Origin: Candidatus Bathyarchaeota archaeon
GTDB lineage: Archaea > Thermoproteota > Bathyarchaeia > 40CM-2-53-6
DNA: 20,308 nt
Assembly: GCA_963833125.1 (NCBI GenBank)
Contig: CAWHWX010000003.1
Coordinates: 1-20,308, forward strand
Direction: 5' to 3'
Positions 1,000 to 16,672 of this stretch are shown here, in pieces. The position numbers were made by a program, and so were the translations under genes. Under the pieces are notes generated by a model. The model did no database searches. It was not told where the DNA came from and was given only the letters and a program-made list of their open reading frames with translations. The first letter of the stretch is position 1; each line of letters starts with the position of its first letter.

Positions 1000-1950
1000 T
1001 TAGAAGATGGCGATTGGATTAAAGAGTGAACCCGTACCGCCAGGCATCCGCAACGGGGCCGCGACCACCATGAACTCCCACCGTTTCTCATCCTCGCATA
1101 CCTTAACCAACTCTTCGAATTGGAGACTGTCACATGCAGCCATTCCCATCGCACAAATCTGAAGCGCGTGGATAGGATATGCGACGCTTTCAACATTGCT
1201 AGGCACCGTCTCCCCATCACCGTCCGGAAGGAAAGCAGCAACCTTACGCTCATGAAGTAATGCCATCGCGTTAGAATGTAGGCCTGCCTTGCCTTCGCCG
1301 TCGTATCCATTATTCCAGGGCCCAAGTTCCAGGCGGCGTCGGTGATGGCCTGTTCGAAATAGTAACAGGTCTCCTTCCCGAAGTCGTACATCTTGTGCTT
1401 TCTCCGCCTGTTCCAATTCCTCTCCTGTCACAGCTTCGCCCGGCTCCAGCCATTTTACTCCTCGTAGGCGCGGAATGTCGAGGAGAACTCCACGGCCAAC
1501 TATGCCGTTAGCGTAGGCTGTGATGTCCATCGATGACGGTCCTCTGGAGGTTACCGTGGTCATTGGTTTGTCGTTGTAGAGTTTTCCTTTGTAGGCAATG
1601 TGGCATAGTGCGTCGATGTGAGTGTGACAATCTCCATGAAATTCGCAGGCCAAGTAGTCCATCGCAAACCGTGGCTCGTCGGTGTTCGGTGTGTCGTAGG
1701 CTTGCACCATGTAGTGGAATGCAGGTCGTGGATTATCAGGCCCCGCAACTGTGCTGATTGGAATAGCCATCGAAATTGAACGGCCGGTACGGACGAGAGC
1801 CGCGGCAGCACGAATGTGGTCCGGTGTGATGTAGTTCAGAGTACCCAACTGGTCGTCTGGGCCCCATCGTCCCCAGTTGCATACTTTCTCGAATAATTTG
1901 TCAAACTCGCCGGTTGTCATGTGGCTGGGTGTTTTGGTTGGGGTATGCAT
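1000..1950 (-). CDS. Cyclase family (kynurenine formamidase-like) metal-dependent hydrolase
   Basis: NWGRWGPDDQLGTLN N-terminus, HGDCHTHIDALCH metal motif (variant of HxGTHxDxxxH), GRGVLLDIPR, GDLLLFRTG, C-terminal APLRMPGGTGSLFNPIAIF. Alternative ATG at 1920. Confidence 0.88.
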   Translation of the reverse strand: MHTPTKTPSHMTTGEFDKLFEKVCNWGRWGPDDQLGTLNYITPDHIRAAAALVRTGRSISMAIPISTVAGPDNPRPAFHYMVQAYDTPNTDEPRFAMDYLACEFHGDCHTHIDALCHIAYKGKLYNDKPMTTVTSRGPSSMDITAYANGIVGRGVLLDIPRLRGVKWLEPGEAVTGEELEQAEKAQDVRLREGDLLLFRTGHHRRRLELGPWNNGYDGEGKAGLHSNAMALLHERKVAAFLPDGDGETVPSNVESVAYPIHALQICAMGMAACDSLQFEELVKVCEDEKRWEFMVVAAPLRMPGGTGSLFNPIAIF

Positions 1951-1961
1951 GTGTCCGGAAC

Positions 1962-3134
1962 CTACGTGGTGGCTAGTAAGCTTCCGTGTCCAGGCCCTCG
2001 AGGGATGATCGGCCAGATGTCGACGACTATTCCGCCCTCGACAACATGGTATGCATCGTAGATGTTTACTGTAGTTGGACTATATCCGGGAACGAACTCC
2101 ATAGTGTCTCCAAGTTTGAGGCTACATCGCTTGTCGACGTCGAAGATTGCATGTTCCTCCGCAAGGTAGCGTGCCGCGTAGAATGGGTAATCTATCATCG
2201 TGGGTTGCGCGTGGTCGCTGCTGACTGACTTACTACCGCAGTCAAATACGATGGTATCGCCGTGATGTATCACAACTGTTCCCAGGACAGTCAACGATTT
2301 CGAGAAGCCTGGTACTAGGTTTCCATGGAAATTATCCATGAAAACGTAAGACCCAGCTTGAATCTCAGTGACGCGTGGATCCGCGGCCGTAATATCGTAA
2401 GTGCCAGTTCCGCCAGCGGAAACTATCTCACACTTGAACCCTGACTCAGCTAGGCGATCGACGACGCTACCTACGTAATCCATGGCTTGCCTAGCTTTCT
2501 TTACTCTTAGTTCACGATCGGGTTCAAGCATACAATGTCCTTCGTAGCCCTGCACGCCTCTGAACCTGAGGCCAGAAAGAGTTGCCAAGTGTTTAGCCAG
2601 ATCTACGGCTTCATCTGTAGAACGAACTCCGCCTCGCCCCATTCCGACGTCGATCTCGATGATGACGTCAAGTTTGCTTCCTGCCTTAGAGACAGCCTTG
2701 GAGATGTCATCGGCATTATTGGCATCATCTACAGTAACTGTGAGGCGTCCATCTTTGGCGACTTCGGCAAGCGTTTGAATTTTTTCCTTGCCCACCACCT
2801 CATTCGCTATCAACACGTCTTCGATTCCGCCGCGGCTCATAACAAGGGCTTCCCAGACTGTGGCTGTACAGACTCCGATCGCCCCAGCTTCGACCTGCAT
2901 TTTGGCCAGTTCAATGCTCTTCTGGACCTTTATGTGAGGTCTTAGCTTAGCGTGCATTGACTTCAAGCGTTGTGTCATGAAGTTGATGTTGCGACGAACC
3001 ACATCAAGATCCAAGATCAGTGCCGGCGTAATGAGCTCACGGCGATGTCTGCCTACCGCGGAGCGGTACGAGTTACGTACGCGCTTCTGAATTTCATCAA
3101 GCTGCGGATAAGTTCTCGCACTTAGTTGACCCAA
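1962..3134 (-). CDS. DSD1 / D-threonine aldolase-like PLP-dependent enzyme (alanine racemase fold, type III)
   Basis: TPALILDLD, RPHIKVQKS (PLP lysine; family RPHxKTHK), EIDVGMGRGG, GVQGYEGH, SAGGTGT, EIQAGSYVFMD, AEEH. TTG start. Confidence 0.85.
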   Translation of the reverse strand: MGQLSARTYPQLDEIQKRVRNSYRSAVGRHRRELITPALILDLDVVRRNINFMTQRLKSMHAKLRPHIKVQKSIELAKMQVEAGAIGVCTATVWEALVMSRGGIEDVLIANEVVGKEKIQTLAEVAKDGRLTVTVDDANNADDISKAVSKAGSKLDVIIEIDVGMGRGGVRSTDEAVDLAKHLATLSGLRFRGVQGYEGHCMLEPDRELRVKKARQAMDYVGSVVDRLAESGFKCEIVSAGGTGTYDITAADPRVTEIQAGSYVFMDNFHGNLVPGFSKSLTVLGTVVIHHGDTIVFDCGSKSVSSDHAQPTMIDYPFYAARYLAEEHAIFDVDKRCSLKLGDTMEFVPGYSPTTVNIYDAYHVVEGGIVVDIWPIIPRGPGHGSLLATT

Positions 3135-3210
3135 GATAAACGGCTCTCAACGTTCATGAGAAATCTCTGGTAATAAGAAGCATGGCTCAGGTTCAGGGTT
3201 AGACATTCAT

Positions 3211-3959
3211 CTAGTGCATTCCTCGGCCGCCCGTTATCATGTGGAGCTCTCCGGTTACAAAGTTGGAATCATCAGAAGCTAGATACAGTGCAGCATTAGC
3301 CACCTCATCAGCGGTTCCGAACCGCTTTAGGGGTGTTTCCTCAAGGACCATCCTTTGAACTTCGGGATCGATATCCCCGACCATTTCGGTTTTGATCCAA
3401 CCTGGACAGATTGCGTTAACGTTGATGTAGGGTCCAAGTTTCAGTGCAAGTGCTCTTGTCAATCCGTTCATTCCTGCCTTTGAGACAACGTATTCGACGA
3501 ATCGTAGAGCTGAGGGATGGTACATCCCAGAGTTGGAGGAGATGTTGATTATTTTTCCCTTCTTCTGTTTCAACATGATTGGGGCCACTTCTCTTGAGCA
3601 TAAGTAAGCACCTTTGAGGTTGATGTCGATTGTTTGGTCCCAGATTTCTTCAGTGGCGTCAAGGAACGTATTCTGGAACATCACTCCTGCATTGTTCACT
3701 AGAATATCTACACTTCCGTAAGCGTCGACCGTTTTCTTTACGAGTTGTTTCACTTCATCTGGCTTAGATACGTCGGCTCTCACAGCAATAGCCTGTCCGC
3801 CGTTCTTTCTTATCTCGTCCACTAACTGAGAAGCCTTCTCTTCGGACTTATGGTAGTTAATGACGACCTTGGAACCTTCAGCAGCGAATTTTCGGGCAAT
3901 GGCGCTGCCAATTCCGCCGAACCCCCAGTAACGATCGTCACCTTGTCCTTCAATTTCAT
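3211..3959 (-). CDS. Classical short-chain dehydrogenase/reductase (FabG-like), about 249 aa, one frameshift near 3918
   Basis: ATG at 3959 reads MKLKDKVTIVTGGS. Adding one base near 3918 joins it to GGIGSAIA and restores TGxxxGIG. NNAG, YVVSK and NAICPG follow. The N-terminus in the ORF track (4062) is an artefact. Confidence 0.88.
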
Positions 3960-4145
3960 CTGAGATCACGAAAAGGAGATGTGGTCTTTGTTCTAATATC
4001 TTCTTGGAGAATCCAATATCGTAATCTCCCTGACTGGAGGATTGTTTTCGCCCCAACCTCACATGGGAAAGCGCATATTAATCAAGTAGCGAGCCCTCGA
4101 ACGTTCAATTTTTACCCTTGAAATTCGCCGGCTTCATGCCAAGTG

Positions 4146-4154
4146 TTAAATATA
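4146..4154 (+). promoter_or_regulatory. Putative archaeal TATA box for the APC permease
   Basis: TTAAATATA ends about 28 nt before the probable TTG start at 4182, consistent with a short-leader or leaderless archaeal transcript. Confidence 0.5.
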
Positions 4155-4181
4155 CTTCGAAGAACCAGTTTTCAGATCTGC

Positions 4182-5759
4182 TTGGCTACTACACAGAAGG
4201 TATTCCTACGGGAAGCAACTGGATTAGTCAGGTCCTTCACGTGGTATGATGCGACGATATTGAGCTTGGCCGTAACCGGGCCGACCCTCTTCGGAATCTC
4301 CTCCCAAATCGGCTACGTAGCCCCTAACGGACCTGGAGCCGACTTCACACTTTCCGCAATCATTGGATTCCTGTTCATGATCCCCCTCGCGGTAGTATAC
4401 TACATCTTTTCGGTTCAGATGCCAAGATCTGGAGGGGACTATGTGTGGCTTGGGCGGACGCTGAATCCAATTTTGGGATTTGTTGGGGGTTGGGCTATGT
4501 TCATTTCATTCATAGCGCTTCTGGCAAGTGCATCTGTAACGGAACCCGCGGTCGTTATGCCCGACGTAGGCGTGGCCCTGGGGTACATATGGAATAATCC
4601 AGGACTGATTTCGTGGGGACAGAACTTCGCGAGTAGTACCACAAATCTATTCGCTGGGACAATTCTCACGATAGTTGTTGGAATTGCTATTGCCAGTTGC
4701 ACGCCAAGAGTTTACAGTCGCATCATGCTTGTTTTGGCTGCGATAATCTTCGTCGCCTCTTTCATCTTCATAGGCGCATTCGCGACCGCCACAAGCTCCT
4801 CATTTGCGACAGGGTTGAGTAACTTAACGAATGGAAGTATGACAGTTAATGGGGTAGTATCTCAAGCTGCCTCGGCGGGTATGGCATTCGTTCCGGTGAA
4901 TCAAACCGCCACTTTCCTAGCCATTCCATTCGGCGTCTTGCTATTCAACGGATTCAATTATTCTGTCTACATCTCTGGTGAAGTGAGGAATGTGAAGAAT
5001 GGCATGTTGTGGGGTGTGCTAGTTGCACTCTTGATCTGCGGAATTCTCGATATAACGGGACTTTACTTCGTGACGAGCGCGGAAAGCTACCCGTTCATGC
5101 AAGCAGTGTTTGGGTTATTCGGCGCCGGTAAACTCTCCCTGGGGGTTTCTCCATGGTCGCCCGTTTTCATCCCAGCAGTCCTAAGTAATCCATACCTGTC
5201 GAGTTTCGTCGAGATCGGCTTCCTATTGTTCAACTTCTGGTGGGCCGCGGGCCTCGCCATCTGCATTTCAAGGTATGTGTTCGCGTTCTCCTTTGACCGA
5301 GTACTCCCAACGGTTTTTGCAGATGTGAACGACAGGCTGCATGTCCCACTCAAAGCAATCGGGTTGACTTTCGTAATATCCGTCATCCTAACCTACATCG
5401 CGATATACACGACATACATTGGCCAACTGCTCAATGTGGTCACGATCTGGGCCGTAGTGTGGATTCTAGTAGGAATATCAGCAGTGGTCCTTCCATTTTG
5501 GAAGAAAGAATTCGCCAAGGGTCTCATCGGTGGTCGCTGGTTACTCCCGATCTTTGGCGTTCTAACTATCATAGGCATGGGCACCACATTCTACTGGTCT
5601 GTAACAAATCCTGCCATTGGGCCCTCGACTTTAGGATCAACCATCCTGCTAGTCGTGATATTCGGGTCCGCTGTAGTCATCTATATGGCACGATACTTCT
5701 ACTTCAAGGGCAAAGGCCTTGACTTGATCCGTGGCCAAATGGAGATACCGCCCGAATAA
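4182..5759 (+). CDS. APC-superfamily (amino acid/polyamine/organocation) permease
   Basis: About 12-14 hydrophobic segments, N-terminal VFLREATGLVRSF, MPRSGGDYVW, YISGEVRN, SRYVFAFSFDRVLP and C-terminal EIPPE typical of archaeal APC permeases. TTG 4182 is preferred over GTG 4143, which overlaps the TATA-like element. Confidence 0.88.
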   Translation: MATTQKVFLREATGLVRSFTWYDATILSLAVTGPTLFGISSQIGYVAPNGPGADFTLSAIIGFLFMIPLAVVYYIFSVQMPRSGGDYVWLGRTLNPILGFVGGWAMFISFIALLASASVTEPAVVMPDVGVALGYIWNNPGLISWGQNFASSTTNLFAGTILTIVVGIAIASCTPRVYSRIMLVLAAIIFVASFIFIGAFATATSSSFATGLSNLTNGSMTVNGVVSQAASAGMAFVPVNQTATFLAIPFGVLLFNGFNYSVYISGEVRNVKNGMLWGVLVALLICGILDITGLYFVTSAESYPFMQAVFGLFGAGKLSLGVSPWSPVFIPAVLSNPYLSSFVEIGFLLFNFWWAAGLAICISRYVFAFSFDRVLPTVFADVNDRLHVPLKAIGLTFVISVILTYIAIYTTYIGQLLNVVTIWAVVWILVGISAVVLPFWKKEFAKGLIGGRWLLPIFGVLTIIGMGTTFYWSVTNPAIGPSTLGSTILLVVIFGSAVVIYMARYFYFKGKGLDLIRGQMEIPPE

Positions 5760-5801
5760 GCAAACCAAGACGACTGAAACCGCCGAATCGAACCACTGAA
5801 A

Positions 5802-5821
5802 TCCTGCGGCTTCCCGCAGGA
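5802..5821. other. GC-rich stem-loop downstream of the permease (possible terminator or RNA stability element)
   Basis: TCCTGCGG-CTTC-CCGCAGGA is a perfect 8-bp inverted repeat about 40 nt after the stop codon. Confidence 0.45.
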
Positions 5822-6002
5822 CAATTTCGGGATGGCAAACTCCCCCTAGCCTACTTTGTTTAGCCTATCGGAGAATTATTCAGTTGGACGGACTATCGCA
5901 TTTCTGGGGCTGCTTTTATCGGAGGATGTCGCACTAGCCCAAGATGGTGGATAGAGAATGCTTCCGGCAGATTCAGATAATGTGGGTCATAAGTGGGGGC
6001 GG

Positions 6003-6233
6003 ATGGTTGTAGAAATTCTGGGTTGGTATGGATTGATCGCTATCGTAGTTGCCTATGCGACCGTGAGCTTGAGCTTAGCCTTACCGAATAGTTACGCGTA
6101 CCAATTCTTGAACCTAAGCGGAGCGGTAGGACTTGGCCTAGTGGCCTTCGTCAAGAAGGCGTATCAAAATGGTGTTCTAAACATAGTTTGGGGCGCTATT
6201 GCTGTTGTGGCTCTGATACGACTGATTCTTTGA
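6003..6233 (+). CDS. Small 3-TM membrane protein (CBU_0592-like)
   Basis: ILGWYGLIAIVVAY...SYAYQFLNLSGAVGL...VLNIVWGAIA matches the pattern I recall for this family. ATG 6003 is more likely than 5958. Confidence 0.7.
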   Translation: MVVEILGWYGLIAIVVAYATVSLSLALPNSYAYQFLNLSGAVGLGLVAFVKKAYQNGVLNIVWGAIAVVALIRLIL

Positions 6234-6264
6234 ACTTTGGTGTCGCGGATTTATGGCAGGATGG

Positions 6265-7167
6265 TTATCGGCGATTCCTCGATGCGCTGGTTGGTAGGAA
6301 TTTCTCTACGCGTTTCCTGAGTTCTATTGCGGCTTTTGACCATTTTCCGTCGCACACATTGTTTAGGTAACTGTCATTCTCAAATTCGAGCGAAAGATAC
6401 CCGCGGTACCCAGAGTTTCGTAGGGCCACAAAAAACCTCTTCCAATCCACTACACCCTCGCCAAGAAATGGAAAAATGAATGTTTCTCCAAGGCCGCCGG
6501 GTTTTCCAAAAGCATCTTTCACATGTACATGCCGGACCTTCTCGCCGAGCATTTTCGCTGCCCACACGGGGTCGTTTCCATACACAACGAAGTGAGACGG
6601 GTCCAGGTTCACGCCTAGATACTTGGAATCAAAGTAGCTGAGAAACTCCTTAACCGTATAGTAGTCGTGCACCAACATTCCGAATACAGGTTCAACCGTG
6701 ATCACGACATGATTCTTCTCCGCCGAGTTAACCAGATTAGAAAATGAATCGACGACAACCTTCCAAGCTTCGCCTTCCGAGATTTCCCGACCGATCCTCT
6801 GAAACTCAGGATTCCATGTCATCGGACCGGTGAAGACGTTCATCAAGGGGATAGACAATTCGCTCGCTTCCATCAACATAGTGTTCAAGAGTTTCAGGCG
6901 TCTATTCCTAACTTTGCTATTCTTTGTTACGAGGTCCTGCCAACACATTATGTTCGATACGGCAAGGCCACGTCTTCTCGTTTTATTGACCAGCTCTCTG
7001 AGTTCCCTGGTATTCCGGAAATGCTGGCCTAGCATCCATTCTACACCCGCGTACCCTGCTTTCGAGATGACGCGGATCGCTTCGTCAGTCGACGGCGAAG
7101 CCCAAACGGCCGGGGAAGTCATGTAGTAAGGGATGAATGATAACTTCCAGCCTGACGTTCTTGTCAA
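6265..7167 (-). CDS. Sugar phosphate isomerase/epimerase, xylose-isomerase-like TIM barrel (AP_endonuc_2)
   Basis: AGYAGVE, TVEP, NLDPSH, HVHVKD, LGEGVVDW and GYLSLEFE supply the E/D/H/E metal-ligand set. TTG start 4 nt downstream of the LLM stop. Confidence 0.85.
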   Translation of the reverse strand: MTRTSGWKLSFIPYYMTSPAVWASPSTDEAIRVISKAGYAGVEWMLGQHFRNTRELRELVNKTRRRGLAVSNIMCWQDLVTKNSKVRNRRLKLLNTMLMEASELSIPLMNVFTGPMTWNPEFQRIGREISEGEAWKVVVDSFSNLVNSAEKNHVVITVEPVFGMLVHDYYTVKEFLSYFDSKYLGVNLDPSHFVVYGNDPVWAAKMLGEKVRHVHVKDAFGKPGGLGETFIFPFLGEGVVDWKRFFVALRNSGYRGYLSLEFENDSYLNNVCDGKWSKAAIELRKRVEKFLPTSASRNRR

Positions 7168-7171
7168 CTTT

Positions 7172-8014
7172 CTAGAATGAGCCTCCTATTTCCTTCGCGA
7201 CGCGGCCTATTTCTGTCAAGCATTTTTCATCTTCTGCTTTCTCGCCTAAAGTAAAATGCGTCATACCAGCGTCCACATACTGTTCAACGTCTCTCCGGAG
7301 AGTTTGGATATCTGTTCGGTTGATTAGGCTTGTAAATGTAAATTTGTCATGAGGATATTTTCGCTTGTTCAACTCATCGAGGATTACTTTTCTCATTTTC
7401 GAGTACTCATTGGGTTTAGGGTAACTTTCGTCAAACCACCTGGGGCCTATAGGCATCCATCCATCCGCATACTTTCCCGCTGCGTGAAGCGACACTGGTA
7501 GATGTCCGCCCCACCATATTGGTGGATAGGGTTTCTGAATGGGTTTAGGCTCGAGAGCGGCACTCTTTGCGTTGACATATTTGCCATGGAAATTCACGGG
7601 CCCCGGCTCGGTCCATAGGCGTTTCATCAATCGGATCGCTTGCAGGCTAAATGCGATTCTCTCCCTATTCTCATGCCATTCCGCATACCCTTCAAATTCG
7701 GGTCGGTACCACCCAAAACCTACTCCAACTATGAGACGACCGCCGGAGAGATAGTCTGTGGTAGCGACCATCTTTGCGAGCATGCCAGGCGGTCGAAATG
7801 TGAGAGGAGTAACGGCGGTTCCCAATTTGATCTTGACGGTTTTCGCCGCAAGGTAAGGGAGGAAGGACCAAACATCGATATGATTGTTCGCGTTTGGTAG
7901 CATGAAATGGTCGGTTACAAGAAAATAATCATAACCCACTTTTTCGGCTTCTACCGCTAGTCTTTCGATGAGCTTAGGGTTTGCCCGTCCCGTGACAGCG
8001 ACTCCACATTTCAA
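7172..8014 (-). CDS. LLM-class flavin/F420-dependent oxidoreductase
   Basis: TDHFM, IKLGTAVTPLTFRPPGMLAKMVATTDYLSGGRLIVGVGFGW...EF, PKPIQKPYPPIWWGG, YADGW. Confidence 0.88.
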   Translation of the reverse strand: MKCGVAVTGRANPKLIERLAVEAEKVGYDYFLVTDHFMLPNANNHIDVWSFLPYLAAKTVKIKLGTAVTPLTFRPPGMLAKMVATTDYLSGGRLIVGVGFGWYRPEFEGYAEWHENRERIAFSLQAIRLMKRLWTEPGPVNFHGKYVNAKSAALEPKPIQKPYPPIWWGGHLPVSLHAAGKYADGWMPIGPRWFDESYPKPNEYSKMRKVILDELNKRKYPHDKFTFTSLINRTDIQTLRRDVEQYVDAGMTHFTLGEKAEDEKCLTEIGRVAKEIGGSF

Positions 8015-8051
8015 TCCAACTACCTCGTTGAAGTAGGTCGATGTAAACCAA

Positions 8052-8068
8052 CGCTAATATACAAAGCG
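8052..8068. promoter_or_regulatory. Candidate bidirectional promoter/operator between divergent gene sets
   Basis: The 82-bp intergenic region has a central TAATATA (8055-8061) inside the inverted repeat CGCT-N9-AGCG, roughly 35-45 nt from both start codons. Confidence 0.4.
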
Positions 8069-8096
8069 AATCGCCTGTTCTACGAGATGACAACCT

Positions 8097-8591
8097 ATGC
8101 CCACACCCGTTCCATCTGGAATGAGGATTACCCAGGTCGCGGTAGTTGTGAAGGATTTACGAAAAACCATGGAAGCATATCACAAGATTCTCGGTTGGGC
8201 GCCTTGGAGTGTCTACGAACATAAACCTCCAATCCTGCACCACCAAGAGCTCCACGGCAAATCAGCTAACTATTCAATGCTTGGCGCGGAAGTCCACTGT
8301 GACCCGATCGACTTCGAGATACTGCAACCCTTGGAAGGGCCAAGTATCTACAAGGAGTTCTTAGAGGAGAAGGGCGAAGGACTGCACCACGTTTCCGTTG
8401 TCAGCCCAGCTGAGGATGTTGAAAAAGCGCTCGCAGAATTCAAGAAAAATGGCGTTGATGTAATGATGAGCGGAAGACTGGGTGAAAACATCAGATTCTA
8501 TTACATGAACACTGAGCCTGTGTTGAAGATGGTGGCAGAAACAGTTAGTGGCCACGCGATTTCTATGAAGCCTATCTACACCTATCCTTGA
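8097..8591 (+). CDS. VOC family protein (glyoxalase / methylmalonyl-CoA epimerase-like)
   Basis: ITQVAVVVKDL, FEILQPLEGPSIYKEFLEEKGEGLHHV and a C-terminal Glu give the Q/E/H/E metal set of Glyoxalase_4-type proteins. Confidence 0.85.
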   Translation: MPTPVPSGMRITQVAVVVKDLRKTMEAYHKILGWAPWSVYEHKPPILHHQELHGKSANYSMLGAEVHCDPIDFEILQPLEGPSIYKEFLEEKGEGLHHVSVVSPAEDVEKALAEFKKNGVDVMMSGRLGENIRFYYMNTEPVLKMVAETVSGHAISMKPIYTYP

Positions 8592-8646
8592 CATTCATCC
8601 ATCAAAAATAGAAGCCTCGTGACAGACAGCCCTAAGGTGGATTCAG

Positions 8647-9349
8647 ATGCCGGATTTCAGCTTACCAGGCGTTGAACAACGAATTATTGATGACTTGGCG
8701 AGTAAAACCGTTGAAGTGGCTCGTGGCCTGTTTGAGAACCACCTGGTAACGTCAACATTTGGTGTCGTGAGTAACCGAATCCCGAACACCGACTATGCAC
8801 TAATCACTCCGAGCGGGTTCAGCAAACTCATGCTCAATACCCGCCATCTGATCGTCGTAGACCTAGATGCGAAACTTGTTCAAGGAAACTTCAGGCCGTC
8901 TGTAGAAACGGCTATGCATACTTACATACACAGGAACCGACCCGAAATTAGTACGGTGATTCATACGCACTCACCGATGGCCTGCGCTTTTGCAGCCGCT
9001 AATATAGAGATTCCATGTGTCACGGCGGAACAGGCGTTCTACCTTGGAGGCAGGGTGCCGCTGGTAAGGAAATATTCACTTCCAGGTACGACGGAACCTG
9101 CCGAGTTGGCGGCGGTCTTGAAGGCGCTCGAGAGATGTGATGCCGCTCTCCTGAGGAAGCATGGAGTGGTTGTTGTGGGAAGAACTCCCGAAGAAGGGTT
9201 GGAGACCGCAGATAGTGCTCGAGGACGTTGCTAACATGGCCGTCCATTCAATGGTTCTTGCGAAACCCAAGGAGTTCACCAGGAAGGAACTATCCTACTT
9301 GAAAATCTTCAAACGGACGAGGTACGGACAGCATCCTTCCGCAAAATGA
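8647..9349 (+). CDS. Class II aldolase/adducin family protein (fuculose-1-phosphate aldolase-like), one frameshift near 9210
   Basis: ITPSG, PSVETAMH, HTHS and LLRKHG motifs. Removing one base near 9210 gives ...EGLETAIVLEDVANMAVHS...KRTRYGQHPSAK*, joining the two track ORFs. SD-like AGGTGG lies upstream. Confidence 0.87.
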
Positions 9350-9374
9350 CCCTTCCCCTAGGGCATGAGTCAGT

Positions 9375-10937
9375 TTGAGCAAGGACTATCTGGCCGCAAT
9401 AGAGCGCGGGAACCGGAAGCGGCAGGTGCGTAATCTTTGATTCGGAGGGTATCCAAGTCGCCATTGCTTCAAGGGAGTGGGCACATCCTACAATCCCAGG
9501 ATATCCCGGAGCTTTTGTCTTTGAAACCGCTCGAAATTGGGGGCTCATCTGCGAATCAATTCACGAGGCGATTGATCGGGCTAAGATTCGGCCCGATGAA
9601 ATTCGTGGCATAAGCGCGACCAGCATGCGTGAGGGTATGGTGCTCTATGATAAGGCTGGTGGAGAACTCTGGGCATGCCCGAACGTTGATTCACCGCCAA
9701 GAACGAAGTTGCCCAGATGATTAAGAAAGGTCTCGCCAAGAAGATATACTTCAAGGCTGGCGACTGGCTTGCGATTACCTCGCCTCCAAGATTCCTTTGG
9801 ATCAAGAAACACGAACCAGACATCTTCAAGAAAACAGCCCATATGACGATGATAAGCGACTGGATCCTTTATAGGCTGACAGGGAAATTTGCTACCGATC
9901 CTTCGATTGGCTCAAGCTCAAATCTGTTTCAACTTGCAAAAAGAACTTGGTCGGACGAAATCATCGACTGGTGTTCCCTACCTAGAAGTATATTTCCGGA
10001 CGTAAAGGAACCGGGAACAGTGCTAGGAGATGTCACGGCTGAGGCCGCCGCTGAGACAGGTTTCAAACCGGCAACCCCTGTAGTCGTAGGTGGGGGCGAC
10101 ACTCAGCTCGGTCTTATCGGTATATCTGCCGTTCAACCCTATGATTCCGCCACAATTGGCGGAACGTTCTGGCAACAAACGGTTGTCACAGACAAACCGA
10201 TCATAGACCCGAAGATTCGATTGCGCACTCTTTGCCACGCAGTTCAAGGAATGTGGATGACAGAGGGGATAGGGTTCCTTTGTGGATTGACAATGAGATG
10301 GTTTAGGGACGCATTTTGCGAACGAGAAAAGGAAATTGCGGCTCGGGAAGGAGTTGACGCATACTCTTTGCTTGAAAAAGAGGCCGAAAAAGCGGATGCC
10401 GGTTCGAATGGTGTCATCCCAATTTTCTCAGACATAATGAATGCTAGAAGGTGGATTCATGCCTCCCCTTCCTTCGTGCAATTCGACATCAACCGACCCG
10501 AGGCATCTGGCAAGAAAGAATGCGTCAGGGCGATTGAAGAGAGCGCGGCTTATGTGGCGTTAGGCCATCTGCAAATATTGCAAGCTCTCACCCATAGAAA
10601 AATGAAACAAGTTGTATTCTGCGGGGGGGCATCGAAAGGCTTCCTGTGGCCCCAAATATTATCAGACGTATTTGGTATCACGGTCAAGGTTCCCGTAATC
10701 AAGGAATCTACGGCCCTAGGCGCGGCAATTTGCGCGGGGGTGGGCGTCGGGATATTTCGGAACCTGAAAGAGACTGCGAAGAGCATGGTCAAATGGGACC
10801 GGACCTTCGAGCCCAATCAGACCACCCATAGAGAATACGCGAAATTTTACGGCCGATGGTGCAAAGTGTACAAGAAGTCGTTAGGGATGGTTGAAGAAGG
10901 TCTGGTGCAACCGATGTTCAGGGCCGCCGGAACATAG
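9375..10937 (+). CDS. lsrK: Autoinducer-2 kinase (LsrK-like FGGY kinase), about 520 aa, with compensating indels near 9404 (+1) and 9695 (-1)
   Basis: The repaired N-terminus MSKDYLAAIDAGTGSGRCVIFD...YPGAFVFETARNW...SATSMREGMVLYD...WACPNVDSRA, and downstream TMISDW, GGTFWQQ, GLTMRWFRDAFC.REK.IA, GVIPIFSDIM...WIHASPSF, GGASKG.LW.QIL and GLVQPMFRAAG, match E. coli LsrK as I recall it (SMREGIVLY, WACANVDARA, GGTFWQQ, GLTMRWFRDAFCAEEK, GVMPIFSD, WYHAAPSF). Confidence 0.85.
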
Positions 10938-11047
10938 ATCGAAGATCCTAGAATGAAACTCATACGCGAAATTGAAATTGACTTGGGAATACGAAGCGGA
11001 GAATGGCTAAAGAACTAGCCTGCAACTATTGACCTGCTGAGAAAGAG

Positions 11048-12067
11048 ATGGCGACCATAACCGAAGTACAAGAAATACCGCAAAACGACTACGCAAAGTA
11101 CGGCCTAACGAAAGATCTCTTACGTGAAATGCTCAGGAAGATGCTCATCATTAGAAAATTCGAGGAGAAAGTCGAGGAACTATTCATAGTCAAGGGGCTA
11201 TTGATAGGCCCATCGCACCTGTACCTAGGCCAAGAAGCGGTAGCGACAGGCGCAATGATGGCACTTCAGCCCAACGATTTAACGGTAACCACATATCGCG
11301 GCCACGGACACGCACTTGCCAAAGATGTTCCATCCAACCTCTGCATGGCAGAACTTTTTGGAAAATCAACGGGTAACTGCAGGGGACTGGGCGGCTCGAT
11401 GCACGTCGCTATCTATCCTAAGACGGGCTCCATTTACGCTACGGCTATCGTTGGTAGTGGAATACCCATAACTGCAGGGGTTGGGCTGGGCCTCAAGCAA
11501 AGGAAAACGAAGCAGATTGCGGCCACATTCTTCGGCGACGGTGCCTGCAATACTGGCGCGTTCCATGAGGGTGTAAACCTTATCGCCCTTTGGAAGCTAC
11601 CGGTTCTACTATTCTGTGAGAACAATCAGTACGGAATGTCCACCAATGTCAAGATGTCTGTTTCAAGCCCAAGCATCGCTGAGAGAGCCCGCTCCTACGG
11701 AATGGAAACGACGGTTGTCAATGGAAATGATGTTGTAGCGGTATACGCAGCGACCAAATCCGCTGCTGAAAAGGCTCGCAGAGACTCCACCCCAACTTTT
11801 CTTGAATGCTTAACTTACAAGATGAAGGGTCACGGAGTCTATGACAAGGGAGAATATCGTCCCAAGGAAGAAGTCGCGAAATGGCTCGAACACGATCCTA
11901 TTCTTACATTCAAGAAACGGCTCCTAGACCAGAAGATCATGACAAAGGCAGAACTTGAACAACTCGACGCGGCAACACAACAAGAAATCGAGGACTCGGT
12001 TAAATTCGCCATGCAAGGTTCACCTTTACCTTTCGACGAGATCGGAAACTACGTTTACGCAAAGTGA
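11048..12067 (+). CDS. TPP-dependent dehydrogenase E1 alpha subunit (acetoin/pyruvate dehydrogenase, AcoA/PdhA-like)
   Basis: HLYLGQEAVA, YRGHGH, GLGGSMH, FFGDGACN...ENNQY TPP motif, TYKMKGH. Confidence 0.92.
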   Translation: MATITEVQEIPQNDYAKYGLTKDLLREMLRKMLIIRKFEEKVEELFIVKGLLIGPSHLYLGQEAVATGAMMALQPNDLTVTTYRGHGHALAKDVPSNLCMAELFGKSTGNCRGLGGSMHVAIYPKTGSIYATAIVGSGIPITAGVGLGLKQRKTKQIAATFFGDGACNTGAFHEGVNLIALWKLPVLLFCENNQYGMSTNVKMSVSSPSIAERARSYGMETTVVNGNDVVAVYAATKSAAEKARRDSTPTFLECLTYKMKGHGVYDKGEYRPKEEVAKWLEHDPILTFKKRLLDQKIMTKAELEQLDAATQQEIEDSVKFAMQGSPLPFDEIGNYVYAK

Positions 12068-12072
12068 TACCG

Positions 12073-13050
12073 ATGAAAGAACTCACTTATGCTGACGCAC
12101 TCCGTGAAGCGCTGCGCGAAGAAATGATCCGTGATCCGAACGTGATACTTCTCGGGGAAGAAATCGGCGTCTTCAACGGGGTCTACAAGGTTACTAGAGG
12201 TTTGCTCGACGAATTCGGGCCTGAACGTGTTAGGGATACTCCAATATCGGAAGCAGCCATCACTGGGGCGGCAGTGGGTTTGGCCTTGGCTGGCATGAGG
12301 CCCGTAGCCGAAATCATGTACATGGATTTCCTCCCTATATGCATGGATCAGTTGTCTACCCAAGCTGCAAAAATGCGCTTCATGAGTGGAGGCCAACTCC
12401 AGGTACCCATGGTCTTGAGAACCCAATACAGTCTCGGCCGACAACATGGATCACAGCACTCACAATTCACTCCCGCTTGGTTTCTGCAGGCACCCGGATT
12501 GAAGGTAGCTTTGCCCGCTGATCCAAGCGACGCTAAAGGTCTACTGAAGTCAGCAATCCGAGATCCCAACCCAGTCCTCTTCGTAGAGAGCGGCTTACTC
12601 TACCGAACCAAAGGACCAGTACCTGAAGAAGAATACCTAACTCCTCTCGGACAAGCAGCCGTGAAGAAGAAGGGGGACGATGTCACAATTGTGGGAGTTT
12701 CAAGAATGGTTAATGAATCTCTCGCAGCCGCGAGAAAACTTGAAGACAATGGCGTCTCAGCTGAAGTCATAGATGTGAGAACAATCCAACCGCTCGACCT
12801 TGATACAATCATCGAGTCAGTTAAGCGAACTTCCAGGCTGGTTATCGCATCCGATGATGTAAAGAGAGGTGGCGTGGGAGCCGAGATCTCAGCTTCAATC
12901 ACAGAGACAGCCTTCGATTACTTAGACGCACCAATTGCAAGAGTCGCATGCCCGGACATGCCAATTCCATTCTCCCCATCCCTCGAGCAGCAGTATATGC
13001 CGAACGCGGCGAGCGTTGTTCAAGCCGTCCAAACAATACTGGGCAAGTGA
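12073..13050 (+). CDS. TPP-dependent dehydrogenase E1 beta subunit (AcoB/PdhB-like)
   Basis: LGEEIG, RVRDTPISE, RPVAEIMYMDF, QHSQ, DAKGLLKSAIRDPNPVLF, YLDAPIARV. ATG 12073 follows an SD-like GTGAT overlapping the E1 alpha stop; GTG 12064 is the alternative. Confidence 0.92.
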   Translation: MKELTYADALREALREEMIRDPNVILLGEEIGVFNGVYKVTRGLLDEFGPERVRDTPISEAAITGAAVGLALAGMRPVAEIMYMDFLPICMDQLSTQAAKMRFMSGGQLQVPMVLRTQYSLGRQHGSQHSQFTPAWFLQAPGLKVALPADPSDAKGLLKSAIRDPNPVLFVESGLLYRTKGPVPEEEYLTPLGQAAVKKKGDDVTIVGVSRMVNESLAAARKLEDNGVSAEVIDVRTIQPLDLDTIIESVKRTSRLVIASDDVKRGGVGAEISASITETAFDYLDAPIARVACPDMPIPFSPSLEQQYMPNAASVVQAVQTILGK

Positions 13051-13056
13051 TTCGTC

Positions 13057-14220
13057 TTGACGCAAGTTATGATGCCCCGTCTCGATCCTGGGATGCAATC
13101 GGGCAAGATAGTTGAATGGCTGAAGAAGGAGGGCGAGTTGGTTAGAAAGGGGGAGCCTATACTCGTCGTAGAAGGAGAGAAGACTACATTCGAAGTTGAA
13201 GCTCCAGATAGTGGCCCTTTAACCAAGATTCTAGCGAGCATCGGGACAGATGTCCAAGTTGCCGAACCAATTGCAATCATCGGAGAAGCCGGATCGGCAA
13301 CACCCCAATCAGTGCCAAACGAGAAAACTGAGCAAGAGCGACCACAGCAACCTTCGACTATCCCTGCCTCCGGAACTCTGTCGGATCGGGTAATTGCATC
13401 TCCCGCAGCACGGCGTTTAGCCCAAGAATACGGCCTCAACCTAACCTCCCTAAAGGGAACTGGCCCAGGTGGCCGAATAACTCGAGAAGATATCCTCACC
13501 GCAAAACAAAACACACCAGCATCGCAGTCTACATTAATCCTCTCAAAGATGCCTCAACCCGCCGTTCTAAAGAGAACGAAACTCGCCGGGATCAGAAAGG
13601 TTGTAGCGGAAAGGCTCTCGTTTAGTGCACGAACAGTTGTCCCGGTTACAATCACCATCGAAGCAGACGCCACGAAATTATTGGCGATGAAAGAACAGAG
13701 CCACGTTGGGTTCTCAGCTTTCGGAGTAAAAGCAGCTGCAAAAGCATTAGGTGACCACAATGATGTTAACTCAACAATAGAAGGCGACGAAGTTACAAAT
13801 TACTCTGACGTCAACGTCGCCGTAGCCATACACACCGAACAAGGCCTAGTTGCACCTGTAATCAGGAATGCAAACAAACTATCACTGAAGGAGATTAGCT
13901 CAACGATTGAAGAACTTGCCAAGAAGGCGGCTGAAAATCGGTTAACGATTGAGAACTTGACTGGCGGCACATTCACGGTAACAAACCTCGGCGCATTCGA
14001 CGTCGAATCATTTGCACCCGTCATAAACCCTCCCCAGTGCGCAATTCTTGGACTCGGCCGAATCGCTTACAAACCATTCGCCAACGGTAGTCAGGTATCC
14101 GCGCGACCATCGACCCTCCTAACACTAGTTTTCGATCATCGAATTATCGACGGAGTCCCGGCAGCTAAGTTCCTCAGAGACGTAAAACGTAATCTTGAGG
14201 AACCGGAAGGCCTGCTCTAA
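13057..14220 (+). CDS. Dihydrolipoamide acyltransferase E2 (AcoC/PdhC-like)
   Basis: Single lipoyl domain (VEGEKTTFEVEAP, Lys retained), subunit-binding domain (ASPAARRLA...GTGPGGRITREDI), catalytic GGTFTVTNLG, PVINPPQ and FDHRIIDG. Confidence 0.92.
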   Translation: MTQVMMPRLDPGMQSGKIVEWLKKEGELVRKGEPILVVEGEKTTFEVEAPDSGPLTKILASIGTDVQVAEPIAIIGEAGSATPQSVPNEKTEQERPQQPSTIPASGTLSDRVIASPAARRLAQEYGLNLTSLKGTGPGGRITREDILTAKQNTPASQSTLILSKMPQPAVLKRTKLAGIRKVVAERLSFSARTVVPVTITIEADATKLLAMKEQSHVGFSAFGVKAAAKALGDHNDVNSTIEGDEVTNYSDVNVAVAIHTEQGLVAPVIRNANKLSLKEISSTIEELAKKAAENRLTIENLTGGTFTVTNLGAFDVESFAPVINPPQCAILGLGRIAYKPFANGSQVSARPSTLLTLVFDHRIIDGVPAAKFLRDVKRNLEEPEGLL

Positions 14221-14260: not shown

Positions 14261-15322
14261 CTACTTTGTTGGCGGACGCAGGGCTATCTTTAACGCTTTT
14301 CCGCTTCCCATCAGCTGAAGAGCTTCCTCAGCCCGTTCAAGTGGCATCTCGTGGGAGATTAGGGGTTTTATGGATACCCGCCCTGACACGATCAACCGGA
14401 AGGCGCGTTCAACTGATGAAGGTGTATGGTGGAACGATCCTTGAACGTGCAATTCCCCATAGTGTATCTTCTCCGCCTCGAACGAAGCCAGAGTCCCGGA
14501 CGGGCATCCGCCGAAGAGAAGGACCGTCCCACCCTTCCTAGCTAAACCCGGAGCCGCGTCCCAAGTTTCACGCCTACCGACCGCTTCCACGACCATATCA
14601 GCCCCCCTGCCATCAGTTAGCTCACGAACCCTCGCTAGAAGATTCTCATTTGAGGAGTTTATCGTTACATCCACTCCAACTCCCTCAGCCTCCTTCAACC
14701 GATCTTCCACTACATCACACAAAACCACCTGACGTGCACCGTTAAGGCGCGCGAGTTGGGCATGTAACAGGCCGATTGGGCCGCCACCGATGATCACGGT
14801 TGTTCCTCCGGCAGGTAGATCCTTAGCCAAATCCCATCCGTGAACAACACATGCCAAAGGTTCTAGACTGGCTACAGTCTCGAGTGGCACGCCTTCCGGC
14901 ACCTGAAATGTATTTTGCCGAACTATTCTTTCCGGAACCCGAACATATTCAGCGTATGTACCTGGCCAAGTGAACCCAATTATGCTCTCATTCAAACGTT
15001 CGCACAGATTCGGTTGGTGCAAGAGGCAGTAGAAGCATCGATTGCAAGGAGCTGAGTTCGCAGCAACCACCTTCATCCCGACGCTAAATTTTGTGACATC
15101 TTTTCCGATGGCTGACACGGTTCCGGCGAATTCGTGTCCCATTATTTGGGGCGGTTTTGCGAGTTGGTGCCCCCGCTTGTACATCTTAACATCTGTGCCG
15201 CATGTCAAGGCGACGGCGCTCTTCACAATCAATTCTCCTGGTTCAGGTTCAGGGATAGCGACCTGCTCCGCTCTGAGATTGCCAGGTTCGTAGAACCTAA
15301 CTGCAAGCATTGTATTTGCCAT
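14261..15322 (-). CDS. Zinc-dependent medium-chain dehydrogenase (L-iditol/sorbitol dehydrogenase-like)
   Basis: CGTDVK, GHE, structural Zn motif CNRCFYC-x7-C, EPLAC, GGGPIG. ATG 15322 has an upstream GGAGGTTAGGAG SD-like sequence. Confidence 0.9.
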   Translation of the reverse strand: MANTMLAVRFYEPGNLRAEQVAIPEPEPGELIVKSAVALTCGTDVKMYKRGHQLAKPPQIMGHEFAGTVSAIGKDVTKFSVGMKVVAANSAPCNRCFYCLLHQPNLCERLNESIIGFTWPGTYAEYVRVPERIVRQNTFQVPEGVPLETVASLEPLACVVHGWDLAKDLPAGGTTVIIGGGPIGLLHAQLARLNGARQVVLCDVVEDRLKEAEGVGVDVTINSSNENLLARVRELTDGRGADMVVEAVGRRETWDAAPGLARKGGTVLLFGGCPSGTLASFEAEKIHYGELHVQGSFHHTPSSVERAFRLIVSGRVSIKPLISHEMPLERAEEALQLMGSGKALKIALRPPTK

Positions 15323-15392
15323 GAATGGACTCCTAACCTCCACTGGTCAGACGATATTTAGCTCCGCTGCACCCGACCGAGCTTCGCACTTC

Positions 15393-16421
15393 TCATTCGT
15401 TTTCAACCATTATCTTACCCGCATCTCCAGCACTCCCAGCGAGCCAAAGCGCATCTATTGTTCGAGAGAGCGGGAATCTGTCGGTAATGATCGCTGAGGG
15501 TCTAACTCGTTTACTCTCGATCAGTTGCATTGCCACTCCCATTTCAGTTTCGGACGTGGAGTAGCTCGATTGAAAGCGTACCTCTCGGAGAAACATTTTA
15601 CCCATATCCAGTGACATGGTCGCGCCTCGTGTTGGTGCGCCGAACAGAAGAACCGTCCCTCCTTTTCGAACCGTGGCAAAAGCGGATTCGAGCGCTTTCA
15701 AATTGGCGGTCGCAACAATCGCGTAATCAACCCCGAGACCTCCGGTCAACAGAGAAATTGCCTTAGGGACGTCGTCGGTTGTTGGATCAAATGATAAATC
15801 CGCGCCCAACTTAGTGGCGAGATTTCTACGCAGCTTGATTACATCCACGGCATATATCGGCTCGACTCCGAGACATCTCAGGAGCTGTACGTGTGTCAGA
15901 CCAACTGGACCCACACCATAAATCGCGACACTGTTACCCACGGAAACGCCGACCTTACGGAGTGCTCGGATGCAACACGCAGTGGGCTCTGCCTGTGAGC
16001 CTTCCTCGAAACTCACAGACTCAGGCAGCTTGTACACCGCTCCCCCGTTCACTAGCGTCTTTGGAACCCTGAAATATTCCGAGAATCCGCATGGGTCAAG
16101 GTTGCTTTTCGGGTATTCTTCGCAAAGCGTTTCGAGGCCATTCTTACAAAAATGGCAATGGCCGCACGAAACATGATGATGTACGACGACTCGGTCGCCG
16201 ACAGCAAAGTCTTTGATCTGTGTTCCGGCCTTGTGAATTACTCCAGACACTTCATGTCCAAGGATGGGTGGAGTAATGTGTTCGCCACGAACCTTCTCCA
16301 CATCAGTCCCGCAGATCCCGCACGCTCGCATTGCAACGAGAATCTCGTCGGAATTAATCTCAGGCGTGGGGAGGTTCTGCATTTGAACCGTTCCATTGTT
16401 TTGGATGATTGTGGCTTGCAC
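15393..16421 (-). CDS. Zinc-dependent medium-chain dehydrogenase (L-iditol/sorbitol dehydrogenase-like), second of a tandem pair
   Basis: CGICGTDVEK, LGHE, HHHVSCGHCHFC-x7-C, AEPTACC, GVGPVG, FQSSYST. Confidence 0.9.
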   Translation of the reverse strand: MQATIIQNNGTVQMQNLPTPEINSDEILVAMRACGICGTDVEKVRGEHITPPILGHEVSGVIHKAGTQIKDFAVGDRVVVHHHVSCGHCHFCKNGLETLCEEYPKSNLDPCGFSEYFRVPKTLVNGGAVYKLPESVSFEEGSQAEPTACCIRALRKVGVSVGNSVAIYGVGPVGLTHVQLLRCLGVEPIYAVDVIKLRRNLATKLGADLSFDPTTDDVPKAISLLTGGLGVDYAIVATANLKALESAFATVRKGGTVLLFGAPTRGATMSLDMGKMFLREVRFQSSYSTSETEMGVAMQLIESKRVRPSAIITDRFPLSRTIDALWLAGSAGDAGKIMVENE

Positions 16422-16579: not shown

Positions 16580-16672
16580 GGGCTCGTGGTCCAGCCTGGT
16601 TAAGACGTCGCCCTCACATCTCCAAGGTGAGACCGGCGAAGATCCCCGGTTCAAATCCGGGCGGGCCCACCA
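16580..16672 (+). tRNA. tRNA-Val: tRNA-Val(CAC) with a 15-nt intron at canonical position 37/38 (16619-16633); CCA encoded
   Basis: Acceptor GGGCTCG/CGGGCCC plus A-CCA; D-arm region GTCCAGCCTGGTTAAGAC; anticodon stem TCGCC/GGCGA with CT-CAC-A; T-arm CCCGG-TTCAAAT-CCGGG; BHB central helix CTCA/TGAG flanked by 3-nt bulges CAT and ACC. Confidence 0.95.

Follow-up and report, generated by a model that had tools for sequence, protein, structure and literature searches.

We studied a 20,308-bp stretch of DNA (the window), which is the entire contig C3 of a Bathyarchaeia metagenome-assembled genome, and within it a run of six genes at positions 8097-14220 that includes a kinase related to LsrK, the autoinducer-2 (AI-2) kinase of the bacterial Lsr system. 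The assembly of this genome, G000, amounts to 3.07 Mb in 39 contigs and is 87.8% complete and 7.0% contaminated; genomes, loci and contigs of G000 are labelled here with G, L and C numbers, respectively. All six genes are on the positive strand: a 164-residue protein of the vicinal oxygen chelate (VOC) or glyoxalase fold (8097..8591; PF13669, Glyoxalase_4, 51.1 bits, gathering score 27 bits); a protein of the class II aldolase/epimerase fold of about 233 residues, with a frame break near 9211 (8647..9349; PF00596, Aldolase_II, 135.6 bits, gathering score 22.2 bits); the LsrK-family FGGY kinase, in three frame pieces and with TTG at 9375 as its probable start (about 9375..10937; FGGY_N, PF00370, and FGGY_C, PF02782); and the E1 alpha (11048..12067; PF00676, 261.9 bits), E1 beta (12064..13050; Transket_pyr and Transketolase_C) and E2 (13057..14220) components of a 2-oxoacid/acetoin dehydrogenase-type complex, E2 being an acyltransferase with lipoyl (PF00364), E3-binding (PF02817) and catalytic (PF00198) domains. 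E1 alpha begins 110 bases behind the kinase, E1 alpha and E1 beta overlap, and six bases separate E1 beta from E2. An earlier reading of this DNA (the original prediction) had described the co-directional run and had assigned the window to an archaeon. Both statements held, the second because a contig labelled Candidatus Bathyarchaeia is syntenic, with an identical gene set and order and a kinase 93% identical to that of the window.

As assembled, the aldolase and kinase genes carry three frame breaks. Two of them, one surplus base at 9404 and one base short behind 9694, interrupt the kinase; the original prediction had placed both correctly and had missed the third, near 9211 in the aldolase. 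At the break sites we compared contigs of related populations that are 91-97% identical to the window: the surplus base at 9404 was missing from all three contigs covering it (DNA runs gave two of these, an RNA library the third), and the single contig covering the second site had an extra G behind 9694. The sequencing runs that shared most words with the window shared only 0.20-0.23 of them, none being shown as the source sample, and the parts they left uncovered are uninformative. At the third site the aldolase orthologue of genome G016 (212 residues) could be followed in frame +1 as far as 9210 and in frame +2 over 9188-9346, which moves the corrected end of the gene from 9234 to 9349, just ahead of the kinase start. 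At least ten other genomes presented intact kinase orthologues, with open frames of 518-591 residues and without the indels, and between the breaks the window protein was 78-89% identical to the G016 orthologue and had no further stops. The kinase copies on contigs C2 and C16 also have stops, and many unrelated genes are split there too. The three breaks are most likely assembly errors, since related contigs and intact orthologues do not have them and C2 and C16 are split in unrelated genes.

G000 holds three copies of this region of about 19 kb: the window, the whole of contig C2 (L024) and C16:88000-107000 (L025), with proteins 82-100% identical. These copies look like strain-variant haplotigs in an error-prone assembly, and may not reflect the copy number in the organism. 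In a peat metatranscriptome library (run X8), one contig of 264 bases runs from 9248 to 9511 and so bridges the aldolase end and the kinase start; it has nine mismatches and lacks the extra base at 9404. This hints, weakly, that the two genes are transcribed together in a relative, although the contig might stem from carried-over DNA.

By sequence, the kinase belongs to the LsrK family along its full length, in the wide, profile-defined sense. The LsrK profile (NCBIfam NF008187, an equivalog with a cut-off of 528 bits) was passed by eleven intact archaeal orthologues at 656-686 bits; the pieces of the window kinase scored 128 and 510.3 bits, each separately below the cut-off, and the next NCBIfam family, xylulokinase, reached 193.8 bits. 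Over its full length the kinase shares about 45% identity with LsrK of Escherichia coli. The G016 orthologue aligned end to end with the solved E. coli structure 5ya0 (514 bits, residues 5-519 on 23-539), glycerol kinase coming next at 134 bits, and the substrate-side motifs in common with the E. coli enzyme were largely kept. The claim that LsrK-type blocks run through the whole protein is thus borne out. NCBI and JGI automatic names for the archaeal proteins read ‘autoinducer-2 kinase’. A literature search, which did not cover survey supplements that possibly list archaeal lsrK, found no paper on an archaeal LsrK locus or on Bathyarchaeota with autoinducer-2, and such a locus is not treated in the accessible portions of two articles (PMC12781772, PMC12503165).

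A maximum-likelihood tree of 63 kinases, built after a quick version, grouped all LsrK-like sequences in one clade with a support of 100/100. Inside it, eight canonical kinases formed a clade of their own (100/100) that contained no archaeal sequence: seven encoded in lsr operons (E. coli, Sinorhizobium meliloti, Paracoccus, Lacticaseibacillus paracasei and three Bacillus) and one from Deinococcus encoded next to a cupin gene. The archaeal and metagenome kinases, together with three bacterial ones (Desulfobacteraceae, Spirochaetia and Scrofimicrobium), were the sister group of this clade (94/94). The expectation that the kinase would branch with LsrK therefore held for the profile-defined family but not for the operon-validated clade. 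The solved LsrK structures are described, in the available part of the source, as open forms without 4,5-dihydroxy-2,3-pentanedione (DPD) (PMC8028047). We found no DPD complex from which to read binding residues and therefore used a count of signature columns as a proxy: 47 columns in which the eight canonical kinases share one residue that 16 other FGGY kinases rarely have, scored in 13 archaeal sequences. At least 90% of the archaeal sequences retained 23 of these 47 columns, and by the same measure 92 of the 129 canonical invariants were retained.

The VOC protein passed no NCBIfam equivalog (methylmalonyl-CoA epimerase gave 45.8 bits, cut-off 114.95), and a PDB sequence search returned as its nearest solved chain 3gm5, of unassigned function, at 56 bits. 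The same kind of search found no functionally assigned close relative of either the VOC protein or the aldolase. Look-ups in the ESM Atlas led from the VOC protein only to generic VOC clusters and from the aldolase only to fuculose-aldolase/epimerase clusters. The translated aldolase shows a His-x-His motif followed by a later His and a Glu, which we take to be the metal and acid-base residues.

Of the 23 genus genomes, the same 11 carry orthologues of the kinase, the VOC protein and the aldolase. VOC orthologues at least 83% identical were found in exactly the 11 kinase-bearing genomes, and aldolase orthologues at least 70% identical in those same 11. Eight loci of the genus presented the order VOC-aldolase-kinase-E1 alpha-E1 beta-E2, which was also seen in several metagenome contigs; an arrangement that recurs in this way is not due to chance. 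In genomes G010 and G006 the VOC gene was placed behind E2. Over the class as a whole, the kinase was present in 13 of 401 genomes (11 above the profile cut-off plus the broken copies of G000 and G006) and the VOC gene in 12 of 401, so that 12 of the 13 kinase genomes carry both. The conserved unit is therefore a cassette of VOC, class II aldolase and kinase, gained or lost together within the genus. The gene order predicted to be conserved was so, and only this three-gene part of it behaved as a unit.

The E1/E2 genes followed a different pattern. E1 beta orthologues at least 77% identical were present in 21 of the 22 other genus genomes, with or without the kinase. We examined five relatives lacking the trio: G014, G013, G011 and G018 keep E1 alpha-E1 beta-E2, two alcohol dehydrogenases and the genes downstream in order, and G001 keeps E1/E2 alone. 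The dehydrogenases, both on the negative strand in the window, are a Zn-dependent alcohol/polyol dehydrogenase of the medium-chain dehydrogenase/reductase (MDR) family (ADH1, 14261..15343; ADH_N and ADH_zinc_N), convergent with E2, and a second MDR dehydrogenase (ADH2, 15393..16421; Pfam match). E1/E2 and the two dehydrogenases are an older, separable module adjoining the three-gene cassette, and we divide the six genes into two modules because the E1/E2-ADH order persists in relatives without VOC, aldolase and kinase. Further on, at 17085-19375 on the negative strand, two adjacent frames (Succ_CoA_lig at 18926-19375; Ligase_CoA_2, ATP-grasp_5 and a C-terminal GNAT domain at 17085-18929) resemble an ADP-forming acetyl-CoA synthetase or a Pat-type protein acetyltransferase; they remain beside the ADH and E1/E2 module in relatives.

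Profiles, structure matches and JGI names do not separate the acetoin from the pyruvate type of complex. The best NCBIfam match of E1 alpha was PDH_E1_alph_y (347.5 bits, below the cut-off of 393.85) and its closest solved structure was human pyruvate dehydrogenase (PDH) E1 alpha (194.5 bits); E1 beta scored 384.6 bits on NF006667, above the cut-off of 321; the JGI name of E1 alpha is the generic ‘pyruvate/acetoin dehydrogenase alpha subunit’. No E3 gene was found in the cluster, and the sole E3 of G000 above the profile cut-off lies on contig C1. This dihydrolipoamide dehydrogenase (C1:348109-349473, 521.5 bits) has three in-frame stops and is about 8 kb away from a paralogue of E1 beta (C1:357768-358721). 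C1 thus holds a second dehydrogenase-complex locus, likewise struck by assembly errors.

Searches with tblastn over the whole assembly, at its completeness of 87.8%, gave no match to LsrR, LsrB, LsrC, LsrD or LsrG; LsrA found generic ABC ATPases only, and no LuxS was present in the 3.07 Mb. A homologue of LsrG, a protein of about 96 residues with the antibiotic biosynthesis monooxygenase (ABM) fold, was likewise without tblastn match in G000 and in the 80 metagenome loci described below. The best LsrF-like match in G000, on contig C4, was 31.8% identical and reached 182.3 bits on the LsrF profile NF006081 (cut-off 297 bits). We rejected it as a hidden LsrF: it scores below the cut-off and such a gene occurs in every genus genome, for which reasons it is probably of the archaeal ADH-synthase/aldolase type. 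None of the 23 genus genomes had an LsrF above the cut-off. The absence of lsrACDB, lsrR, lsrF, lsrG and luxS that had been noted in the window accordingly extends to the assembly. True LsrF (397-441 bits) was present in six related Bathyarchaeia genomes without an LsrK-like kinase; in three of the four loci examined (L105, G036:C10; L107, G040:C54; L108, G028:C71; L106, G023:C23) its neighbour is an MDR alcohol dehydrogenase sharing 35-37% identity with ADH2.

A scan of metagenome contigs confirmed 559 relatives of the kinase, of which 80 loci (51-77% identical to the query) were kept and their neighbours identified by tblastn; 28 of the 80 have at least 3 kb on both sides, and figures for this long-flank subset are given second. 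The loci include close kin, which are not independent, and the counts are of loci and not of evolutionary events. LsrG, LsrB and cupin genes were found beside the kinase in none of them (0/80 and 0/28 each). VOC was present in 39/80 (19/28), LsrF, 58-62% identical to that of E. coli, in 29/80 (15/28) and the aldolase orthologue in 13/80 (5/28); LsrF and the aldolase never shared a locus (0/80, 0/28). Kinase, VOC and LsrF stood together in 18 of the 29 LsrF-bearing loci. Other neighbours were a 2-hydroxyacid dehydrogenase (43/80, 21/28), a short-chain dehydrogenase/reductase (SDR; 30/80, 18/28), an enzyme dependent on pyridoxal phosphate (PLP) like that encoded at 1962-3134 of the window (27/80, 20/28), a cyclase-family hydrolase like that at 1000-1950 (15/80, 9/28), an LsrR-like gene (9/80) and a permease of the APC family (2/80). 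The commonest layout, on one strand, was an optional LsrR-like gene, VOC, SDR, 2-hydroxyacid dehydrogenase, kinase, LsrF and PLP enzyme. It had been proposed that other enzymes replace LsrG and LsrF; the VOC and aldolase genes do occupy those positions, yet with true LsrF in 29 of the 80 loci of the wider clade, LsrF is replaced only in the lineage of the window.

E1 beta lay beside the kinase in 5/80 loci (2/28). Among loci with at least 2.5 kb downstream, E1 followed the kinase in 4 of 8 of the aldolase type and in 1 of 21 of the LsrF type, which hints at an association of E1/E2 with aldolase-type loci, confounded by kinship: these loci are close kin, so that the 4/8 figure stands for few independent events. 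We rejected E1/E2 as a requirement in all relatives, given the order kept without the cassette and the 5/80 count. An AcoABC-like complex had been expected as the steady partner of the kinase; the steady partner turned out to be VOC.

Three loci illustrate the variety of the wider clade. L039, labelled Nitrososphaerota archaeon, encodes E1 alpha, E1 beta, E2, SDR, D-2-hydroxyacid dehydrogenase, kinase, VOC (82% identical to that of the window) and a true LsrF (398 bits, cut-off 297). G183 presented SDR, VOC, a cyclase-family hydrolase, kinase, DhaK, DhaL, class II fructose-bisphosphate (FBP) aldolase and a xylulokinase-like gene, the hydrolase (77% identical to that of the window) sitting between VOC and kinase. 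SDR homologues adjoin the kinase in L039, L045 and G183. L038, on a contig labelled Desulfobacteraceae bacterium, has two LsrK-family kinases (4478-6043 and 7986-9551) 2 kb apart, which share 51% and 53% identity with the G016 kinase and do not group with each other in the tree; the interval holds an iron-type alcohol dehydrogenase, and the second kinase is followed by a D-2-hydroxyacid dehydrogenase.

The remaining features of the window lie on both sides of the run. Upstream, the negative strand encodes the cyclase-family metal hydrolase (1000..1950; PF04199), the PLP enzyme, of fold type III and similar to D-serine dehydratase or D-threonine aldolase (1962..3134; PF01168, PF14031), and an SDR oxidoreductase (3211..4062; PF13561), followed on the positive strand by an APC-family permease (4143..5759; PF13520), a possible importer. 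The permease orthologue (74-78% identical) directly borders the cassette in G008, G002, G010 and G006. The upstream region 1000-8014 also contains a 91-residue open reading frame without family, a xylose-isomerase-like TIM barrel and two luciferase-like monooxygenase (LLM) oxidoreductases. Since many metagenome loci also have the hydrolase, the PLP enzyme and the SDR near the kinase, the functional island may exceed 8097-14220. Behind ADH2, a tRNA of 90 bases (16580..16669, positive strand; Rfam RF00005, 50.8 bits) has 17 unaligned bases in the anticodon loop where the Rfam model expects 2, a probable intron; ARAGORN called no tRNA in the window. The intron-containing tRNA of the original prediction was thus recovered by Rfam.

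Compared with the enterobacterial Lsr system (E. coli b1511 LsrK, b1518 LsrG and b1517 LsrF), the locus is similar in its kinase, which is homologous over the full length and whose intact orthologues pass the LsrK profile; in placing a kinase, a small isomerase-type protein and a candidate enzyme for cleavage to dihydroxyacetone phosphate (DHAP) side by side; and in the true LsrF of related archaeal and metagenome loci. It differs in its archaeal host, in the sister-clade kinase, in the lack of LsrACDB, LsrR, LsrG and LuxS from the genome of the window, in a VOC fold at the LsrG position and, in the genus of the window, in a class II aldolase fold at the LsrF position. From sequence and gene order, the window system would work like the LsrK/LsrG/LsrF arm, as a functional analogue that fails several tests of Lsr membership.

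Known lsr loci also vary. The E. coli locus combines the kinase with LsrG and LsrF, and the loci of S. meliloti and Paracoccus likewise have kinase and LsrG but, where LsrF would sit, a gene of the class II aldolase family. In these alphaproteobacterial loci (a pSymB-type plasmid of S. meliloti and plasmid pAMI4 of P. aminophilus) lsrACDB is followed by a class II aldolase/adducin gene (after lsrB; L131 923-2173 and L134 1056-2297, respectively), a precedent for this fold beside LsrK; unlike the window aldolase, to which they are distantly related, these proteins have 413-416 residues and are accompanied by LsrG and the Lsr transporter. The accessible parts of two articles that deal with these loci (PMC2728841, PMC3420918) assign no function to the aldolase. 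Directly behind lsrK, the Bacillus cereus group and Deinococcus encode a small protein that is not LsrG but a cupin of 120-132 residues, and the part of PMC3420918 available to us remarks that it possibly processes phospho-AI-2. These loci differ from ours in that the protein is a cupin and not a VOC protein, in that the kinases are of the canonical clade, and in that no cupin occurred in the 80 sister-clade loci. A cupin in this position means that the isomerase slot varies in fold.

Similarities to two other systems are more distant. The window aldolase scored 64.8 bits, below the cut-off, on the profile of OtnC-type decarboxylases, and the TIM-barrel proteins of related loci weakly match OtnI. 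The Otn pathway of tetronate catabolism consists of a dehydrogenase, a TIM-barrel isomerase, a kinase and a class II aldolase-fold enzyme that frees DHAP from an X-CHOH-CO-CH2OP compound; its kinase, in contrast, is a DUF1537 protein and not an FGGY kinase, and all scores were far below the cut-offs. AcoABC and heterotetrameric PDH share with the window E1 alpha, E1 beta and an E2 with lipoyl, E3-binding and catalytic domains. Acetoin and butanediol clusters have MDR dehydrogenases beside E1/E2, in parallel with the two ADHs of the window. The window cluster differs in having no E3, and the profiles cannot tell Aco from PDH. A chemical parallel only is found in Pseudomonas aeruginosa, where an LsrG-like ABM protein and a glyoxalase are described in one operon, in the portion of the source at hand (PMC12274486).

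The simplest reading of the gene order is that there are two slots, an isomerase and a DHAP-releasing cleavage enzyme, each filled by interchangeable folds; we read it so because LsrG, cupin and VOC, and likewise LsrF and aldolase, are swapped across E. coli, the alphaproteobacteria, Bacillus and Deinococcus, L039 and the window. We tentatively favour the view that the VOC protein acts in the role of LsrG and the aldolase in that of LsrF, after an LsrK-like kinase, on phospho-DPD or a close analogue. The kinase would place a phosphate on the terminal CH2OH of DPD or of a small sugar much like it (1-deoxy, with a diketo or keto group). The VOC protein, with its metal-dependent glyoxalase fold, would then shift a carbonyl and convert the 2,3-dione into the 2,4-dione, the task of LsrG in enterobacteria; the VOC fold is known to handle alpha-dicarbonyls and enediol intermediates on a metal. 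In place of the thiolase LsrF, the aldolase-fold enzyme would hold C1-C3 as the DHAP enediolate on a metal, break the C3-C4 bond and free DHAP. The class II aldolase-fold decarboxylase releases DHAP from 3-oxo-tetronate 4-phosphate, which has the same X-CHOH-CO-CH2OP shape. The two-carbon remainder would be acetate, if a hydrate is cleaved, or acetaldehyde, if the methyl ketone is first reduced by an ADH, as in one of the two routes of the original prediction (Route B). The E1/E2 complex may convert this remainder to acetyl-CoA, with the E3 encoded elsewhere in the genome (contig C1). A tendency of E1/E2 to accompany the aldolase and not LsrF would be explained in this way, because LsrF itself makes acetyl-CoA.

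In its purpose the route looks catabolic or like one of salvage; it might also serve to quench bacterial AI-2. That Bathyarchaeia of peat and soil, and the uncultured organisms sharing the clade, would take up AI-2 or DPD without an Lsr transporter and degrade it with the kinase, VOC and either LsrF or the aldolase seems to us somewhat unlikely.

Several observations weigh against phospho-DPD as the substrate of VOC and aldolase and, in part, favour another compound. The archaeal kinases are sisters of the lsr-operon LsrKs and not among them, and they have lost 15 of the 47 signature columns, several being changed to invariant residues of their own. VOC is not beside the kinase in 9 of the 28 long-flank loci. 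The aldolase is below the cut-off on all 27 NCBIfam models matched, the best being epimerase/aldolase models (PRK06557 at the top, 135.9 bits, cut-off 251), and aligns with the Paracoccus class II aldolase at only 32% identity over 100 residues (E 2e-6) and not at all with that of S. meliloti. The kinase and aldolase copies of the window are broken as assembled. Because LsrF occurs in genomes without the kinase, in three of four loci next to an MDR dehydrogenase, the 2,4-dione phosphate may have other sources in these archaea; one idea is a dehydrogenase that oxidises 5-deoxy-pentulose 1-phosphate, e.g., from 5'-deoxyadenosine salvage, to the LsrF substrate. Relatives of the kinase often add the D-2-hydroxyacid dehydrogenase, SDR, PLP enzyme and cyclase hydrolase counted above. 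A plain three-step DPD route needs none of these, a hint that the starting compound is another one or is more complex; the extra genes may supply the pathway with a precursor or serve a different substrate. A serious possibility, though one we hold in some doubt, is thus a catabolic island for a deoxy- or keto-sugar, a tetritol or pentitol, a sugar acid or a nitrogen-bearing derivative (Amadori-type, or a hydroxy-amino acid). The ‘AI-2 kinase’ label would then be an annotation transfer, the kinase acting on an intermediate delivered by the dehydrogenases, PLP enzyme and hydrolase, and VOC with aldolase or LsrF leading to DHAP. The absence of LsrB and LsrG from all 80 loci fits such an island, as do the permease, the TIM-barrel isomerase/epimerase, the two LLM oxidoreductases, the SDR, the PLP enzyme and the cyclase upstream in the window, the DhaK/DhaL, class II FBP aldolase and xylulokinase-like genes of G183, and the aldo-keto reductases and sugar ABC transporters near the bacterial members of the clade. 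Against it stand kinase scores well above the LsrK cut-off, the substrate-side motifs largely kept from E. coli LsrK, and a true LsrF as the commonest downstream neighbour (29/80), an enzyme whose sole substrate known to us is the phospho-DPD isomer.

The original prediction had gone further and joined all six genes in one pathway, with E1/E2 as the essential replacement of LsrF: phospho-DPD would be reduced to a 1-deoxy-pentulose 5-phosphate and this cleaved to acetyl-CoA and glyceraldehyde 3-phosphate (Route A). We consider this improbable. The co-directional genes with short gaps agree with it, two ADHs would be available for the reduction, and VOC behind E2 in G010 and G006 would make one unit with E1/E2; L039, L045 and L202 have another, divergent E1/E2 set (41-43% identity) beside the kinase, which points the same way, as does the 4/8 against 1/21 distribution. 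The latter figure, however, comes from the closely related aldolase-type loci, E1 beta is found throughout the genus irrespective of the kinase, and the E1/E2-ADH order, or in G001 E1/E2 only, stands without the cassette in the five relatives; E1/E2 adjoins the kinase in just five metagenome loci, the cluster lacks E3, and genomes carry several E1/E2 sets, which makes a chance adjacency easier. Still less likely, and very improbable, is a decaying cassette with three real breaks and with kinase and aldolase as pseudogenes. Three frame breaks inside 500 bases, and stops in the C2 and C16 kinase copies as well, are what decay would leave; but the C2 and C16 breaks hit many unrelated genes, a pattern typical of error-prone assemblies that contain haplotigs, every related contig covering the sites (one of them from an RNA library) is free of the indels, the orthologues of at least ten genomes are intact, and the sequence between the breaks is conserved and open.

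The Lsr system is the best-studied interspecies interference with quorum sensing, and to our knowledge Lsr-type uptake and destruction of AI-2 are known from bacteria only. If VOC and aldolase do process phospho-DPD, archaea would consume, and thereby quench, a signal that passes between bacterial species, and a phospho-DPD isomerase would have been invented independently at least three times (ABM, cupin and VOC folds). A second processing route, in which the isomerase has another fold and cleavage falls to an alternative enzyme, would mean that more organisms can remove AI-2 from a community. An archaeon consuming a bacterial signal is an attractive and testable idea, which we infer from the genes described here. 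The kinase clade is widespread in uncultured soil and peat microbes (559 relatives in one metagenome scan) and is also present in archaea. If its substrate is not DPD, databases misname a large sister clade as ‘autoinducer-2 kinase’, and the loci would point to a widespread, as yet unassigned catabolic operon of VOC, 2-hydroxyacid dehydrogenase, kinase, LsrF and PLP enzyme.

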